Assembly: GCA_010356995.1 (NCBI GenBank)
Contig: ML996693.1
Coordinates: 1,240,001-1,261,896 of the forward strand
Reading direction: 5' to 3'
Source of the DNA: Trichodelitschia bisporula
Taxonomy: Eukaryota
Length of the DNA: 21,896 nt
Shown here: one piece after another, positions 5,510 through 21,896 of the stretch
How the letters are laid out: the number at the start of each line of letters is the position of its first letter
How positions within the stretch are numbered: the first letter of the stretch is position 1
Notes under the pieces: generated by a model
Seen by the model: only the letters and a program-made list of their open reading frames with translations
Told to the model about the DNA's origin: nothing
Database searches by the model: none
Program-made: the position numbers and the translations under genes

Positions 5510-6339
5510 TGGGTCGGACTGTAATGGTGGTGTGTTAAGGCTGCGTCGATAGGGTGGAAGGCTTTGCGCTTCTTTCTCGCCGACACGTCGATACTGATAC
5601 AGTCGATGTACTCAATCTCCCCATCGCTTTAAGCTGGGCCGATTTCTGGTGTTTCTTTATCTGGTTCTTGTCAGCCTTTTGGCACCTCTGACATGCGCTT
5701 CGTGTCCGCTTTCTAGCATCTAGGACACGAAGCGCATGGCACAGATGCCAAAAGGCCGACATTAACCGGGTGAGGCAACATCAAGATCAGTACAGCCAAA
5801 AGTGAGGTGGCAGATCGTGCACATCGACTACACCAGCCTTTGATATGTCGACAGGCAGGTGTTGGATTGTCCAAGTAAGAGGTGGCGCGGTTCAATGAAT
5901 TAAGATATCCGGACATCCTTGCGCTTGCAGCGACGGTAATAACAGTTTAAGCGCAAGTAGTGTTCAATAGCGCCTGCAGAGTGAAAATCTGAGATTGAAG
6001 ACTCGTGACTTGAACTCTTACAATTTGAGCTACTGTGGGATATGTGCGCCGCCATCTGGAAAAAAGCGGTCCAGATGGTTGCCCAAATGGGACGGGCTGC
6101 ACTTGCCGAAGGTGGTTAGACTGATGGAAGCAGGCCGAAGGCTCAACCTCGAGCAAGCGAGAGGCAACAAACGTCGAGCTCAAGGCCACGCTTCAAAACT
6201 TCACACATTCAGTCAACCACCTAATCTCTACGACCACGCACCTTGGGACCTTTTCAACCCATAATCTACAGCTCAGGCACGCACTTGGACGTATCACCCC
6301 TCGCAACCCCACCTACTCGGCAGAGCCTACCCCGCTATC

Positions 6340-7528
6340 ATGGCGAGCTCCGCAGATACGAAGAAGCGCCTCGCCCTCGCGGTGATCGACTTCCTAAACA
6401 CCTCCGTCACAGATGGCACCGTCAGCTCCGATGAAGCAGAGTCGATCGAGATCGCAACCAACTGCATCGCCGACGCCTTCAAAGTCGACGCAAACGATAA
6501 GGAGGCCATCAAGGCAGCCACGGGCTCCAAGAACCTGCTCAGCATCTACAGCGTGTTCGACAATCTCAAGAGCAAGACACCCGCTACACCAGCCGCTGCT
6601 TCTCCCAGTCCCTCTACGCCGGCTCCCGCCACTGGTGCTGCAGGAGACGAGAAGACGAAGGCTGAAGCTGAGGCGCTGAAGGGGCAGGGCAATGCCGCCA
6701 TCCAGCGCAAGGACTATTCTGCGGCCATCGACTTCTACACTAAGGCACTCGACCTTACGCCGCTGAACCCAGTCTACCTGTCCAACCGCGCGGCCGCATA
6801 CTCTGGTTCAGGCAAGCACGAGGAAGCGAAGAACGACGCCGAGATGGCCGTTGCCGCGGACCCGAAGTTTGCTAAGGCGTGGAGCCGTCTGGGACTGGCT
6901 AAGTTCGCGCTCGGTGATGCGGTGGGTAGCATGGAGGCGTACAAGAAGGGCATTGAGGCCGAAGGCAACGGCGGCAGCGCGGCGATGAAGAAGGGCTACG
7001 AGACGGCGAAGAAGCGCGTTGAAGAAGATGGTGGTGATGGGCTGGAGACCGATCGCGGCGCGCCTGATTTCGGATCCGGTGGGATGCCGGATTTGTCGGC
7101 GCTGTCGGGCATTTTTGGAGGCGGTGCCGGCGGCGGCGGTGGCGGCGGTATGCCCAACTTTGCAGACATGATGAACAACCCGATGATGCGCCAGATGGCT
7201 CAGAATCTGATGAGCAACCCGGATGCCATGAGCGGCTTGCTCAACAACCCGCGCCTGCGCGAGATGGCGAGCCAAGTTGGTGGTGGTGGTCCTGCCGGAG
7301 GTGCTGCCGGAGGTGCTGAACGCGGCAGCGGTGGCGGCGGCGGCGGTGGCATGCCGGATCTTTCCAGTCTGCTGCAGGATCCGGCTCTGATGGATATGTG
7401 AGTATTTCTGCTTGTTCCTGGCTGGCACATACTGACTACTTAGGGCGCGGAACTTCATGGGTGGAGCTGGTGGCGCTGGCGGAGCGGGAGGCGCTGGGGC
7501 AGGTGCTGGCCGGGGACGCGGAGCTTAG
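6340..7528 (+). CDS. SGT2: Sgt2/SGTA small glutamine-rich TPR co-chaperone (GET pathway), ~380 aa
   Basis: N-terminal dimerisation domain (KKRLALAVIDFL...ESIEIATNCIADAF), three TPRs (AEALKGQGNAAIQRKDYSAAIDFYTKAL; YLSNRAAAYS; KAWSRLGLAKF) and an M/N/P-rich STI1-like region. Exon 1 6340-7397, intron 7398-7443 (GTGAGT..ACTGAC..TAG), exon 2 7444-7528 (MARNFMGGAGG...RGRGA*). Confidence 0.95.
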
Positions 7529-10136: not shown

Positions 10137-11522
10137 CTATATCCGCGTGCAAGGGCATTCGAAATTTCGGAAGGCCACCACCTTGGCCGAGCCGTCAGGT
10201 TTGACGAACTTTTGCGCTTGGATGCCGACCTTGCGACAACCGGATCTCCCGTGCATCTATCGAACCTTTTTCGGGATGTCTCCCGTTAGCAGGTAATGCA
10301 CGATGTTTGTGTGTGCTGGGTCATTGAGGAATCTTTGGAATGTCTGTCGTCGCTTTCTGATCGTTTCGGGTTCGTCCGCGTCGGAGTCCTCCTCGATTGA
10401 CAGGTCTCCCCCGGGCCCGTTGGTGATGGCGGCTACCGTCGCAGTTTCGATGTCAGCCAAGGTTCCCCCAACCAAAGAGGGGTTCCCGAGCAGCCCTATC
10501 CGGTTTGCCCGGGGTTCACTTCCGAACGCCACAGGATTCCTCGCCGTACACGTGCAATAGGGCCAGGTCGCGATTGTAGCCGGCGGGACATGGTGTCCTC
10601 TTTGCAGGCCGATCATACCACGTAGAAAGGTGGCCAACTGTTCTCAGCTCCCCTTCTTCAATCACCGCAACCTCCGTGCCAATAGGTATCTGGTAGGGTG
10701 TGCGGGCATGAAGCACCAGATCCGCCAGCGCTCCCCAAATGATCGCCCCGCACTTTTTGAGCTTGCCGGGATCGAGGTGCGGGACAAACAAGTGGGAGAC
10801 CGTGGTCAGGACAACTTTTCCGTCTTCCATACGCAGCTTTAAGCCCAAACTGGCGGAGGCCGCCTGTTGCCTGCCTCCTCGCACAGTACAGATCTGCTGG
10901 CGGGCGAGGACTTGGGTGCTGGTGCTGAGTTCGTGGCCGCGGCGGGAGCGGGCGTGCGTTGGTGAGGGGGGGGGGGGGGGGGGGGGGGGGGCGGAGTGAA
11001 GACAGATTGATGGGTGCAGAACTCGGACAAAGTGCGCATTTTGGTGCGCCGAGTAGGGCGAGAATGCGTTCTAACATACCGGCAACTTTTGACCCGCCGC
11101 AGCTGCATGGTTTGTTGGTGTGCTATGTTCAGGCTCCAGAAGGGGCGAGTGGACAAGCCTTGAAATTTGGACGAGGGAAGACCAGTTTGTAAAGAGTTGA
11201 TGAAGTGGTTATTGGTCTGACAAAGATGTGTGTATAAACGTGCAAGGCAGCTCTCTTTCCTTCGTGCTGAAAGGCAAGTGCAGGGTGTGGGGAAAAACAA
11301 TAGAATGACATGACTAGCAAAACATCGGGGACAGGCCGGTCTATATACCGGCTGGGCAAGCGGTATTACCGGAGTGGGTGCCACTGTCGTCAACTGTCCG
11401 GTAGATGCCGCCGCATCCAGTTCGGCTGGAACCGTCTTTGCCTTCACCTTTGGAACCTTGGCTGAGGTAGGCTTTTCGGTCAGTAACGGGCGCTTCTTGG
11501 ATGAAACCTCCTTCGGGGGCAT
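10137..11522 (-). pseudogene. Fragmented remnant of a fungal hypothetical protein, possibly with a trypsin-like (chymotrypsin-fold) domain
   Basis: Protein-like segments lie in different frames: MPPKEVSSKKRPLLTEK... (ATG 11522); ASASLGLKLRMEDGKVVLTTVSHLFV...VGHLSTWYD...YNRDLALLHV (10884-10516; H and DLAL positions recall catalytic His/Asp contexts); and GSAKVVAFRNFECP (~10200-10140). Segments are separated by stops, frameshifts and a 26-nt homopolymer. Boundaries are approximate. Confidence 0.45.
10966..10991. repeat. Poly-G homopolymer (26 nt)
   Basis: Uninterrupted G run from 10966 to 10991. Confidence 0.95.
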
Positions 11523-17691: not shown

Positions 17692-19536
17692 CTAAGCCTG
17701 CTTCATGCTGTCCACCACCACCGGCTGTTTCGACATGGCGGGCCGATCCTCCGGAATCTCGATTTTCTCCGCGCCCGGCGGCGGCGAGTCGCTGCTCGAG
17801 CGGCCCACCTCCTGGCCGTGAGATTCTGGGTACGCGCGCCAGAAATCCTTCTTGCCAGAAATGGCGCGCTGCAGCCAGGGCGGGAGGAAACCGCCGGGGA
17901 TGCGCCATGTCCAGGGATCTTTGAACTCCTTGTTGGCGGGCACTAACCGGCCCCCAGATGCAAGCTCGACCAGCCACACGGTCGTGTTGATGACCATGTA
18001 GGAAACGATACCGCCGATGAGGCCGTATGCGATGGAGTAGGTGAAGGGCATGATGGCAATGGTGATGAAGGCGGGGATGGCGTCACCGAGGTATTTCCAG
18101 TTGATGTCTTTGGCGGCCTTGGCCATGAGCGCGCCGACCTGTGACTGTTAGCAGTGAATATTGGAGCTGGCAGGACAAACTCACGATGACTAAGACCGGG
18201 CCCGTCGCCCACGGCGGGATTGACGCAAAAATGGGGGCGAAGAAAATGGCGATGAAGAAGCACAGGCCCGAGAATATGGATGTTAGGCCAGTCTTGCCGC
18301 CCTCTGAGATACCGGCACCGGACTCAATGTAAGCGGTGACTGGCGGTGTGCCCAACAGACTGCCAATCGAGATACCAAGCGCGTCAACCGTGTATGCGAT
18401 GGCACTGTTTTCGAAGTCCTGCGTGCGCTCGTCGATGGCGCCTGCGAACCGCGCCATGGAGTACAGCGTACCGGTCGCGTCGAGGATGTCGACGTACAGG
18501 AACGTGATGAAGGCGAGGCCAAACTGCGCACCGTAGCCGGACACGTCCCACTTTTGCACGTTGAGCGTCTTCTCGATCGGGTGGAACGTCACGACCTTCT
18601 TGAAGAAGTTGAACATGTTGTCGCCGAGCTCTGTGTGTGGGAAGTAAGTCACCGGCGTCGGCCGCGGCCACGAGATGATAGACACGAGCAAGATGCCGAT
18701 GATGATGGCGCCCTTGACGCGGAACATCTGCATGATCACGACGAGGATGCCACTCAGGAAGATGCCGATCCACAGTGTCGGGTCGCGCATCTTGTACGCT
18801 GACTTGCAGAGTCCGTCCTCACCGAGGTACTGATCGCCGCGCGGACAGCCCGCAAGCTCAACCGGCGTGTTGACCGCGCCCTGAATGAGCCCGATGCCGG
18901 CGGAATACGTCAGGCCGATGATGGTGAGGTACAGGCCGATGCCGACGCCCGTCGCAAGCTTGATGCTTTTGGGGATCGCGCGCGCAAGCCACTGCCGCAT
19001 GCCGATGAGTGTGAGCCCGACGAAGACGAAGCCCTCGACGAAGACTGCCGTGAGCGCCACCTCGTACGGGACGAGGCCGCTGCCGTGAAAGCCAACGACA
19101 GTGAAGGTGAAGTACGCGTTGAGACCCATGCCTGGTGCGAGCGCAATCGGCATATTGGCGAAGAGGCCCATGCAGAAGGTCGTCAGCGCCGAGATGGCCG
19201 CCGTAGCCGTGACGAGATCGCGGTTGATGCCTTGCAAGCAGATGAGGTATTCGGTGTCGGTGACGCAGAGATCGTCGCGCGTGCACTTGCACGTGCCGCC
19301 GGACTGCGAAACAATGGTCGCATTGACGGAGATGATGTATGCCACTGCGCATTTTAGCGATGCAAGAGAGAGGGCGGACAACACCTACTGGCAAAGAACG
19401 TTGCCAATCCCGCACGCATCTCGGTGAAAAAGTACGAGCCCTTGCGCTCCTTGGGATGGCCGGAGCCATCAAGGCGGAAGTAGTGCCCCACGGAGCTCTT
19501 CGCAACGCGCTCGTTGAATCGGTGCACCCACGTCAT
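17692..19536 (-). CDS. azgA: AzgA-family purine (hypoxanthine/adenine/guanine) transporter, ~584 aa, 3 exons
   Basis: Exons 19536-19389, 19344-18185 and 18138-17692 total 1755 nt. Motifs: FFTEMRAGLATFFAMAYIISVNA, ANMPIALAPGMGLNAYF, LYVDILDATGTLYSMA, AYIESGAGISEGGKTGLT, DAIPAFITIAIMPFTYSIAYG. Confidence 0.95.
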
Positions 19537-19623
19537 GTTTGGTGATTGATGTGAGGTTGAATGTGGGCGCACCCGTGCACTTATGTCACTCAAGATGGTC
19601 GTATACGGCCGCGGGCGCCCGGG

Positions 19624-19747
19624 CTATCACGCTGGCCAAGTGATAACGCCGTCCAGCCTCGCGCAAGTCGACGAGTCAGGCCGCAGAGGCGTTGCTTTTG
19701 CGACGTGAGTGGCCTCGGCGTGCAGTCGGACGGCTCCGGTCGACCGG
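19624..19747. promoter_or_regulatory. Candidate AreA (HGATAR) and UaY/Ppr1-type (CGG-N6-CCG) sites upstream of azgA
   Basis: CTATCA at 19624-19629 and TGATAA at 19641-19646; TCGG-ACGGCT-CCGG at 19726-19739; overlapping perfect palindrome CCGGTCGACCGG at 19736-19747. Confidence 0.5.
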
Positions 19748-20917
19748 GCTAGGCAGGTAGCGCTTGATCGCGGGAGGCTCGGCGGGGGTGACCTCGTGGG
19801 CTCTCGGTGAGGTAAAGGGATTGCGCAGCTTGTTGGAGCGGAAGAGGGATGAAGGATTGGTAAATCGTTTGCGTGAGGATTGGCAATGTGCGGAATCGGA
19901 GGTGGGCTAGTGTTGGTGGGGCGCGGGAAGAGAGGAGGAAACGGGTGAATGGTGAAGGACAAGCGGAGAACTCGAATGCTGTTTTTGTTTCCCATTGGTT
20001 GCTAGCCGACTACTAGCACCATGATTGGCCATCCAAGGGTTGAGGATGTTATCTGTCATGGTGTTGGTGTTGATGTCGTCGGGATGAAACAGGTCCAACA
20101 CCATGCAACACCAACAACACGCCGTATCCTACAACACCCCGCACCACAACGCAGTATCAGAGTTCAGCGGCATCGTTCAGCAAGATAGCACAGTATACAT
20201 AGAGCATGGACACTCACATTGTTGCAATGGCCTTGCGTCATCTCCCAACTCCGGCGGTGGCCGACGGCTCGTGGGCGGACGTAAAGCTGCCCTTCCTTTG
20301 CGCAAGGATGCGGGAATCGGATGCGCAATACGATGCTTGCACTGAGGCGTTTGAGCGCTCAGTAACATTTGAACTGGCTGGCGCATTGATGCCGTACAGG
20401 AAATCCTCCTTTGCTGGCGGCGGCGATCTGGCGACCCCAGGATCGTTCATACCCGCCGTGCCCGCGTGCCTGCATGTCTGTGCGGACGTTCAGTCACACG
20501 CTTTGGCCAGTACGCCCCACTTCACCCAAAATTCGGCCGCCTTCGGCATATCCAAACGGTGGGGCGTATGAGAATACAACATTTCCCCTTGAGAGGGTGT
20601 GCCTCTGCTGTTTTACCAACGCAGTCCTATATCTCCAGCTTCTCAACCTCACATCCGATTAATCACTCGCGCGTTGTCAGGGCGAGCTTCTCGCTTCCCC
20701 TTCCATCCCCTTACGCAGTACAGGCGAGCCGTGTCAATATTACGGTACGTACACCAGCTTCGCGCCCCGTTTCCACGATCGTGATGTCCGTTGCGCGTTG
20801 CAGGTATCGATAAGGTTACGCCCTTTGCGCCCCCGGAGGTAGGTACGAAGATCTAAATTCGTGTTCTAAATTTACGTGACTCAGCATAGTCACCAGCTTC
20901 CTCTCGCCTCCGTTGTC

Positions 20918-21102
20918 CAGTTACCCAAAACTCAGCCAGCTGCCCGGCACCCAGTTACCCGGTATATAGCTAGTTACCCGGCATTTAGATAGTTACCCGG
21001 CACTCAAGAAGTTACCCGGTATTCCAAAGGTTACCCGGCATTAATGGAGTTACCCGACGTTGGGGAAGTTACCCCGGAGGAATTTACCCAACATTAGGGT
21101 AA
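20918..21102 (+). repeat. Phased array of 10 copies of an (A)GTTACCCGGYA core with variable spacers, mostly 19-bp period
   Basis: Cores start at 20920, 20939 (degenerate GCTGCCCGG), 20954, 20973, 20992, 21011, 21030, 21049, 21068 and 21083 (spacings 19,15,19,19,19,19,19,19,15); an inverted GGGTAA follows at 21097-21102. Confidence 0.92.
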
Positions 21103-21422
21103 GTGGCCGGTATTCGGTTGTCGTGGGAGACCAATGCCGGGCCTTAACCTTATTGGCTCCCGCGACCTTCCCCCGCGGCTGCTGTCACGTCACCCCAGCC
21201 TTCCCGCACCCCGCTGTGCCTTAGGCAGACGGCAGCGCGATCTGCTCAAGAGTCTGGCGGCTCGCTCTTCAGATAGATCTTTGTGGAAGTAACTTGTTTA
21301 TGCCTGCACCATACCCATCGTGACTTCCACACTTTTGCACGCCCCGGACACGTTACTTCCACTAACCGCCTGTGGTTGGAACCCGGAAAGTCCCCCACGG
21401 TCAGTCTAAACATGCCTTCTTC

Positions 21423-21634
21423 CCTCGGCGGGTCCCAGGACCGTCGTCTTCAGTGACCTTTTCCGAGTCGCTGCCGCAGGCGATGGTCTGACCCCAACGC
21501 CGAACCAGTGACAGTGTCACTGCCTTGCCTTCCTCGGCGGGTCCTATGACCGTCGCCTTCAGTGACGTTTTCCGAGTCGCTGCCGCAGGCGATGGTCTGA
21601 CCCCAACGCCGAACCAGTGACAGTGTCACTGCCT
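21423..21634 (+). repeat. Two-copy direct repeat, 109-bp period, each copy with the palindrome CAGTGACA-G-TGTCACTG
   Basis: Copies start at 21423 and 21532 (CCTCGGCGGGTCC...); four substitutions seen over ~100 bp; palindromes at 21506-21522 and 21615-21631. Confidence 0.93.
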
Positions 21635-21647
21635 GCCTCTCATTCGG

Positions 21648-21896
21648 ATGGCTCTTGACGAGCCAACTACCCAGAGCTTTTAATAATGAATACATACGAT
21701 ATCTGGCCTGTATTGGATTAGTATCACTTACAGGCTACTCGGTAATACATACTTGATACTATCATGATATATCAACAATCCGTGTCACATGATTCATCAC
21801 GTGAGCTCTGCGGAGCACCTTTACCCTCACCATCATCACCAGCTACGAAGATGCTCGAGATCAGGCCTGTACGCTGCCAGCTAACCATACACTCAG
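21648..21896 (+). pseudogene. Possible degenerate ORF running off the right edge
   Basis: ATG 21648 gives MALDEPTTQSF; after a 1-nt shift the frame reads NNEYIRYLACIGLVSLTGYSVIHT*YYHDISTIRVT*FIT*ALRSTFTLTIITSYEDARDQACTLPANHTL. All three stops in the shifted frame are TGA; the region is locally AT-rich. Confidence 0.25.

Follow-up and report, generated by a model that had tools for sequence, protein, structure and literature searches.

The window analysed here is a stretch of 21,896 nucleotides, positions 1240001-1261896 of scaffold C7 in the Trichodelitschia bisporula assembly (25.8 Mb, 44 scaffolds), which its introns and gene content mark as that of a filamentous ascomycete. Near its right edge lies a Reb1-type array of ten same-strand cores (TTACCCGG) at 20919-21089 on the plus strand, 9.5 kb from the right end of the 1,270,495-bp scaffold. 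The last single-copy gene before the array encodes an azgA-type purine permease on the minus strand (17692-19536; 584 amino acids when spliced; introns at 18137-18182 and 19345-19388; match to PF00860); azgA is the label given in the first-pass annotation. An RNA contig extends this gene to 20425-20464 by way of a 5'-UTR intron at 20165-20217, and ends about 450 bp from the array. At 20742-20894, on the minus strand, is a decayed fragment of an NAD-dependent epimerase/dehydratase gene with 74% DNA identity to an intact-looking ORF on scaffold C1. The first-pass annotation had suspected a mobile element beginning at 20.8-20.9 kb; the match of 20742-20894 elsewhere in the genome is this gene piece. 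Rfam gave no match over 19400-21896, so no rRNA unit was seen in that interval; the neighbours of the array are the permease gene and a long terminal repeat (LTR). DNA contigs from two runs of one sample, possibly the source sample of the window itself, span the array with zero differences.

Spliced contigs were obtained from runs X3 and X4. A low-depth contig of run X3 covers 20593-20994 with two GT..AG introns spliced out (20744-20802 and 20837-20882); it is a plus-strand transcript divergent from azgA and stops inside the array. The low cover of the array and the contig end at 20994 were not used as evidence, since contigs cannot show RNA ends or levels. Elsewhere in the window, a 61-bp inverted repeat at 5647-5783 (80% complementary, 15-base loop) lies directly behind a long ORF, presumably NPR3-like as labelled by eye, and a run of 26 G occupies 10966-10991.

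The 5' LTR of a retrotransposon, overlooked in the first-pass annotation, begins at 21119, about 27 bp past the last core. This LTR (family F3, 232 bp, TG...CA) occupies 21119-21350 on the plus strand; solo F3 copies elsewhere are flanked by 5-bp target-site duplications, and read contigs show the loose ends of other F3 copies at 21118/21119. It is followed on the same strand by an 11-mer resembling a primer-binding site (21352-21362), the reverse complement of which is found within the LTR at 21283-21293. Self-priming by 11 bases is described in a passage of PMC7175516, and the element in the window would by this arrangement be a self-priming retrotransposon of the Tf1/sushi type. Two 109-bp tandem units at 21423-21638 (plus strand) belong to its 5' internal region and are common to other copies of the element. 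The start of a second multi-copy repeat, which interrupts the retrotransposon, occupies 21672 to the window's last base, 21896, and is 100% identical to end regions of scaffolds C1 and C3.

The cores of the array start at 20919, 20938, 20953, 20972, 20991, 21010, 21029, 21048, 21067 and 21082. These re-derived coordinates bear out the earlier description of ten cores spaced 19, 15, six times 19, and 15 bp: seven stand in unbroken 19-bp phase from 20953, with two degenerate units before them and one after. Five of the ten are exact copies of TTACCCGG, and the core at 20938 is degenerate and reads AGCTGCCCGG. GTTACCC occurs nine times in the window, eight of them inside the array, where 1.23 were expected, and none of 100 shuffles reached nine. 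Across the six full units, positions 2-9 are invariant and the last five positions have pairwise identities of 0.13-0.4. Uniform decay of a perfect array matched this contrast of core over spacer in 4 of 100,000 simulations, and shuffling of positions matched it in 40 of 20,000, results that uphold the earlier proposal that selection acts on core and phase. The companion claim, that the core is conserved and the spacers are free, stands for the core, which outdoes both the decay and the shuffling models, and fails in part for the spacers. In 75 units from 18 phased chains the unit consensus is AGTTACCCGGYACTYAGCN, and spacer positions 12-14 and 16 keep A-C-T-x-A at 0.7-1.25 bits; these units were picked by their match to the core, which inflates the information values of the core itself.

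The array had also been described as closed by an inverted copy. The coordinates are right, with TTACCC at 21084-21089, GGGTAA at 21097-21102 and TTAGGG at 21094-21099, and the closing feature is local to this array: among the 17 arrays tabulated below, an inverted copy lies 3' of the last core in the window alone and 5' of the cores in one other, and TTAGGG is found within 80 bp in two. The single TTAGGG overlapping the inverted GGGTAA (21094-21102, plus strand) is absent from the sister arrays and probably incidental. The DNA of the region folds no better than shuffled sequence (z 0.24).

Sister arrays are found across the genome. A search for exact GTTACCC-N12-GTTACCC returned 19 matches at 10 loci (control 1), all 10 of them oriented towards a scaffold end that lies within 10 kb. 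With two mismatches allowed, a pair of GTTACCCGG at 19-bp spacing returned 45 matches at 14 loci (control 2), of which 12 were end-proximal (<10 kb) and end-pointing and two, C11:24 kb and C2:1551 kb, internal. The end zones make up 2.5% of the genome, and the chance of finding 12 of 14 loci there is P ~4e-18. Fetching 10 kb at each of 60 scaffold ends added an array at C13R, and further end arrays have a 20-bp period (C8L and C10L) or a 17/18-bp period (C12R). The array at C24R points away from its near end, and most of the 60 ends have no array. Copy number was mapped by blastn among the fetched loci, namely 10 kb at each of the 60 ends, about 25 internal stretches and the small scaffolds. 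In these maps the arrays, 60-250 bp long and present on 16 scaffold ends, stand on a seam with single-copy DNA on the 5' side and repeats on the 3' side. The table of 17 arrays comprises the 16 that point to an end and the C11 array; it leaves out C24R and the internal arrays of other period, which are counter-cases. The far half of the array is missing at the ends and kept at the internal C11 locus.

The polarity of the arrays follows the side on which the repeats lie and not the direction of the neighbouring gene. Of the nearest inner genes that could be identified, eight are transcribed towards the array and six away from it, with three left unassigned, which gives no support to a role specific to azgA. 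Inner neighbours include COG3, an mRNA cap methyltransferase, LAA1 and an RTC-family gene, and Rfam over 20 other array or small-scaffold loci found only two tRNA genes. A purely centromere-flanking role was considered and rejected, because C7 and C15 bear arrays at both ends.

Single copies of TTACCCGG are not enriched in the genome (575, against 625 in the control), so it is the clustering that is selected. A looser search for pairs gave 68 matches against 7 in the control and brought in roughly a dozen internal clusters, whose periods run from 16 to 24 bp; there was no LTR in the DNA fetched around them. The 71 clustered cores of the other-period arrays share an extended motif, RRYTACCCGGCWCT, and 69 isolated cores lack the extension; clusters at C8:1169 kb and C1:1362 kb (the second there), whose periods are multiples of three and which look like coding sequence by eye, were left out of this motif count. 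The internal arrays have a TACCCGG motif with locus-specific periods of 16-24 bp, and some are paired 150-300 bp apart. They are found at C1:538 kb, 1361 kb and 1468 kb, C2:1551 kb, C3:1591 kb, C4:1262 kb, C5:1123 kb, C15:681 kb, C17:49 kb and 189 kb, C19:163 kb, C23:308 kb and C26:89 kb, and on their motif are candidate Reb1 platforms of some other use.

LTR elements adjoin many of the end arrays. An LTR terminus lies between -2 and 30 bp from the last core in 10 of the 17 tabulated arrays, where "last core" was defined post hoc, so that an insertion followed by loss of the far half of the array gives adjacency by construction. These LTRs belong to five families that all start with TGTC and end with GACA, and the 5-mer preceding them differs each time; families F4 and F9 are found beside arrays in both orientations. 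At C2R, C21L, C24L and C25R multi-copy DNA begins within about 45 bp of the array, at C15R the ORF behind the array seems gag-like on inspection by eye and has no Pfam match, and at C7L and C12R the distance to multi-copy DNA is 0.6 and 1.7 kb. Among TGTC-type termini that face single-copy DNA, 9 of 44 have at least two cores pointing at the terminus and none has them pointing away; the sample comes mostly from ends and arrays and 9 of 44 is therefore not a genome-wide rate, and the window is excluded from it by the epimerase remnant. Of 21 termini of other LTR types that face single-copy DNA, none has two or more cores.

The array at C11:24 kb, with 14 units, is split by a solo LTR that sits between AACGG and AACAG, a target duplication matching in four of five bases. 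Removal of the solo LTR restores the 19-bp phase; the phase thus resumes behind the insertion, and the array must be older than it. The seam in the left part of this scaffold (2.7-24 kb) shows the LTR and block start that follow the array at C2R, yet has no array, and the 14-unit array 21 kb further inward points the opposite way; an old inversion would explain both. At C24R an LTR lies 14 bp 5' of a lone AGTTACCCGG core, inside a short TTAGGG tract with a TAGGG duplication (about 6300-6500 of the fetched right end, L094).

Several other repeats were noted in these surveys. Some LTRs of families F13 and F17 (L094:4790-5070 and L076:7554-7799) carry the core themselves, in F17 as an inverted pair of exact sites, which recalls the Sap1 sites in Tf LTRs. 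A 173-bp repeat, F14 (L106:4543-4715 = C1:1467843-1468015), was considered as a targeted LTR and rejected as such; it is a dispersed repeat with at least 41 copies, about 80% alike, three of them within about 200 bp of internal arrays.

Beyond the arrays lie duplicated NLR genes (PNP_UDP or SesB-like, NACHT or NB-ARC, TPR) together with pieces of copia and chromodomain-gypsy elements. Six array ends run on into one NLR-leader block in a single orientation, and non-LTR segments common to array ends are co-oriented in 41 of 42 pairs, compared with 64 of 90 at ends without arrays. The leader itself is more than 1 kb long, has a TATA-like box and precedes NLR genes in which the N-terminal domain varies (SesB-like lipase or PNP_UDP); its copies are 90-97% alike and occur at C3L, C6R, C21L, C19R, C25R, C2R, C8L, C10L, C1L, C16L and C23R. 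Array units average 69% identity between loci, the outer blocks are 90-97% alike and the adjacent LTRs 83-100% alike. The arrays are thus more diverged than the DNA outside them, which makes them old residents and not the ends of transposons; from these identities it appears that arrays stay while the outer DNA turns over. In both DNA runs the depth over LTR regions is far above that of single-copy DNA, and although this is not a copy number, it follows that much repeat DNA is collapsed in the assembly.

Whether these places are telomeric has to be judged from the 9.5 kb between the array and the end of C7, the absence of a telomere tract from the assembly, the co-orientation of the outer blocks and the internal breaks found at some scaffold ends. 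The assembly contains no (TTAGGG)4, and short interstitial (TTAGGG)n tracts are present. At least six scaffold ends are internal breaks in Starship-like elements inserted in 5S genes, and a scaffold end can therefore not be equated with a telomere. Housekeeping genes directly at the seam are as compatible with internal sites as with subtelomeres. The co-orientation of the shared blocks and the presence of arrays at both ends of C7 and C15 speak for subtelomeres. The outer blocks beyond the arrays are most likely subtelomeres, a position in which distal loss is cheap and in which the absence of the far half of the array and of a matching duplication would be expected.

Three scaffold ends, C14L, C27R and C30R (L057, L113, L115), begin with bases 1-15 of a 5S rRNA gene followed by one common sequence, in which a DUF3435 piece is found at C27:114136, and three others, C18R, C25L and C8R (L080, L087, L071), have another common sequence joined to the remainder of the 5S gene. 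By their sequence the two sets look like the left and right ends of a 5S-targeting Starship. At C24:259 kb about six telomere-like repeats form an interstitial tract next to an LTR.

The first-pass annotation had likened the core to a Reb1 site, and this likeness holds: the core equals the yeast Reb1 consensus TTACCCGG as given in a part of PMC5052057, and the genome encodes a Reb1 orthologue. Myb-domain matches number 12 at 11 places, of which four were translated. One of the proteins, P0001 (638 amino acids, encoded on C5 near 268-270 kb), has S. pombe Reb1 (5EYB) as its best PDB sequence match (E 4.8e-16) and as the best match of its predicted fold (pLDDT 87; Foldseek E 8e-8, TM 0.55). Relatives of the protein carry the name REB1 or RNA polymerase I enhancer binding protein, and among them the motifs DCRDRWRNY and SRLQC are nearly invariant. 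The DNA-binding domain of P0001 spans roughly residues 260-485. The PF21559 (Reb1_MybAD) model misses P0001, and the PF21559 search came back blank, as did its control. On sequence and predicted fold P0001 appears clearly to be the Reb1 orthologue, and it would be expected to bind the motif of the array. A passage in PMC8970589 describes the Reb1 DNA-binding domain as wrapping two turns of DNA; with a domain covering about two helical turns, a 19-bp period would seat several proteins side by side. Our literature search found no binding site for a Pezizomycotina Reb1, and the array unit is the first motif candidate we have found for one.

We put forward, with about an even chance of being right, that the close-packed Reb1 sites form a roadblock or insulator border, probably subtelomeric, whose outer edge draws LTR insertion and exchange. 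The array would be a row of sites for P0001, standing between the single-copy chromosome core and the repeat-rich outer blocks, and the resulting wall of protein would bar transcription and silent chromatin from neighbouring genes, several of which are housekeeping genes. Its outer edge may be free of nucleosomes or may stall forks, and TGTC...GACA LTR retrotransposons would insert there; outer blocks would be swapped or deleted at that edge, so that the array persists while the DNA further out is replaced. The first-pass annotation had raised a role as boundary or roadblock for the window alone, and the sister arrays on seams between single-copy and repeat DNA genome-wide argue for it. Which side of the array blocks cannot be read from the sequence. 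For polymerase II, roadblocks have no preferred orientation according to a part of PMC5052057; arrest of forks by Reb1, Rtf1 and TTF-1 at repeated sites is described in an excerpt of PMC5368702. The C11 and C24R arrays, which point away from their near ends, run counter to a border that faces chromosome ends.

The main rival to a border, which we consider unlikely though worth weighing closely, puts the landing of the elements first. Internal platforms of Reb1 or another factor would tether the integrase of one LTR clade on one side, as in Sap1-Tf1, and the resulting piles of elements would break a short-read assembly with no telomere involved. Much of the LTR evidence can be read in this way: the insertion with its target duplication inside the internal C11 array, the termini within 30 bp in 10 of 17 arrays from five families (F4 and F9 in both orientations), the nine-to-none one-sidedness confined to TGTC-type LTRs, and an element in the window that looks self-priming like Tf1. 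The housekeeping neighbours, the six ends shown to be internal breaks and the collapsed repeats indicated by LTR depth far above single-copy depth also suit it. Tf1 itself prefers the blocking side of Sap1 barriers, as stated in portions of PMC7175516 and PMC5371812. Against it, neither a matching target duplication nor an array's other half is found at any scaffold end, 41 of 42 co-oriented pairs of non-LTR blocks would not be expected from independent insertions, and 35 of the 44 TGTC-type termini have no array; moreover, fork barriers of S. pombe that do not depend on Sap1 are not targeted by Tf1, according to a passage in PMC5371812.

We think it improbable that the same border role falls to another protein, or that the array is a fragile site of a purely structural kind, setting the point at which terminal rearrangements halt. 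The extended consensus, with CWCT after the core, exceeds the yeast 8-mer and the genome has further Myb proteins, with its 12 matches at 11 places, yet the core is the yeast Reb1 consensus (PMC5052057, in part) and a clear orthologue is encoded. The junctions at C21L, C24L and C25R lead from the array into mid-repeat sequence, as deletion or exchange breakpoints would, but the array has no unusual fold.

That the array consists of the subterminal repeats of a mobile element, as the first-pass annotation had proposed, be the element a DNA transposon, a Starship or a mobile NLR block with which the array travels, is now largely refuted, and we regard it as very unlikely. It would account for the sharp inner edge, for a unit consensus common to the loci (second-half identity about 0.5, against 0.25 by chance) and for the six array ends that continue into one NLR-leader block in a single orientation; there are Starship remnants in the genome, and NLRs are known Starship cargo according to a part of PMC11162782. 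However, the inner side has no common terminal sequence or inverted repeat, and the inner flanks of 16 other arrays have no multi-copy base among the fetched loci. An inverted partner array was not seen at the 60 scaffold ends except C24R, and no target-site duplication matches array ends to other ends among the fetched loci. There is no DUF3435 captain match near any array (12 matches lie elsewhere) and no transposase family among the 78 outer ORFs of at least 200 amino acids that were scanned. The arrays are also far more diverged than the blocks, and a shared block does not go with greater similarity between arrays (947 of 5000 permutations).

Hardly more can be said for a neutral decayed minisatellite or an element of the azgA promoter, which we rate as a slim prospect. 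Minisatellites containing TTACCCGG do arise often, at 116 or more metagenome loci, and about 450 bp separate the array from the distal end of the RNA contig of azgA. The metagenome matches, examined by pattern scan and by inspection of array, GC and ORFs, are mostly whole-unit minisatellites or coding repeats, and no recognisable fungal homologue of the array was among these loci; most keep the whole unit, whereas here core and phase are kept. The array is not confined to one locus, its position and polarity are non-random genome-wide, and inner genes read in mixed directions. Neutrality of the array is refuted by the uneven decay of its units and by its non-random position; a promoter side-effect on azgA is possible. 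Least credible of all is a fossil telomere, in which the 19-mer is a present or past telomerase-made repeat at healed ends, later overlaid by mobile DNA: the same unit at many ends, the fixed polarity, the lack of flanking homology and of an assembled canonical tract would fit, but decay along the unit is not uniform, internal loci have the same core with different periods and spacers, short interstitial (TTAGGG)n is present and the end-ward strand is not G-rich. A search for the telomerase RNA family (RF02462) was blank and its control silent.

Returning to a border made of Reb1, we offer as a more tentative extension, possible but on balance doubtful, that a whole clade of LTR retrotransposons in a filamentous ascomycete has in the phased Reb1 arrays a dedicated, polar docking site. 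Reb1 would stall forks or tether integrase on one face, and the border that protects the genes of the host would at the same time be a safe haven for the elements and fix the start of the fast-evolving, NLR-rich blocks. If so, Reb1 would join Sap1, TFIIIB, Pol III and Sir4 as a new targeting factor of the host, and the arrays would be a chromatin border defined by sequence in Pezizomycotina. In filamentous fungi it is, to our knowledge, largely an open question what determines the edge at which gene-rich cores meet outer compartments rich in transposons and NLRs. A sequence of 60-250 bp with a named candidate protein on 16 scaffold ends makes it directly testable, and should P0001 fail to bind, the array would still mark rearrangement borders in one genome. 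Our search, which mostly covered literature outside subscription, found neither arrays of this kind reported from filamentous fungi nor Reb1 reported as a tether of retrotransposons.

Among known systems, the STRs and STARs of the S. cerevisiae X element are similar in that a cluster of Reb1 sites borders end-proximal repeats and is missing from some ends. At the STRs Reb1 acts as a roadblock that terminates transcription, and it has been suggested to restrict silencing, according to a part of PMC9531808. The STRs have five to eight TTACCCT, whereas the arrays here have TTACCCGG in strict 19-bp phase; Tbf1-type TTAGGG is interspersed in STRs and STARs and lies near only 2 of 17 arrays here; and STRs adjoin telomere repeats, while the array lies within kilobases of an LTR/NLR mosaic in a putative telomeric position. 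Starships, with their DUF3435 captains, resemble the outer blocks in NLR cargo and have 5S-inserted remnants at other scaffold ends of this genome; the arrays differ in having no captain, direct repeat or common terminus.

Repeated terminator sites for Myb/SANT proteins (Reb1, TTF-1, Rtf1) are also known from S. pombe Ter2-Ter3 and RTS1 and from the mammalian Sal boxes, and an orthologue is encoded here. Those sites lie at the rDNA or the mating-type locus, whereas the present family extends across at least 16 seams between single-copy and repeat DNA. Pairs of host factor and retrotransposon other than Sap1-Tf1 include TFIIIB-Ty3, Pol III-Ty1 and Sir4-Ty5. The Ter2-Ter3, RTS1 and Sal-box sites arrest polymerases or forks, in a polar manner in yeast, as a section of PMC5368702 describes. 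The closest parallel for the insertions is Sap1-directed Tf1, in which LTR elements lie to one side of host-factor sites and, as excerpts of the reviews PMC7175516 and PMC5371812 state, favour the blocking side of Sap1 barriers; the element in the window has a Tf1-like self-priming arrangement. Here Reb1 would take the place of Sap1, the site is common to five or more LTR families, and the insertions are standing and not new. The precedents that our search returned come from yeast and mammals.
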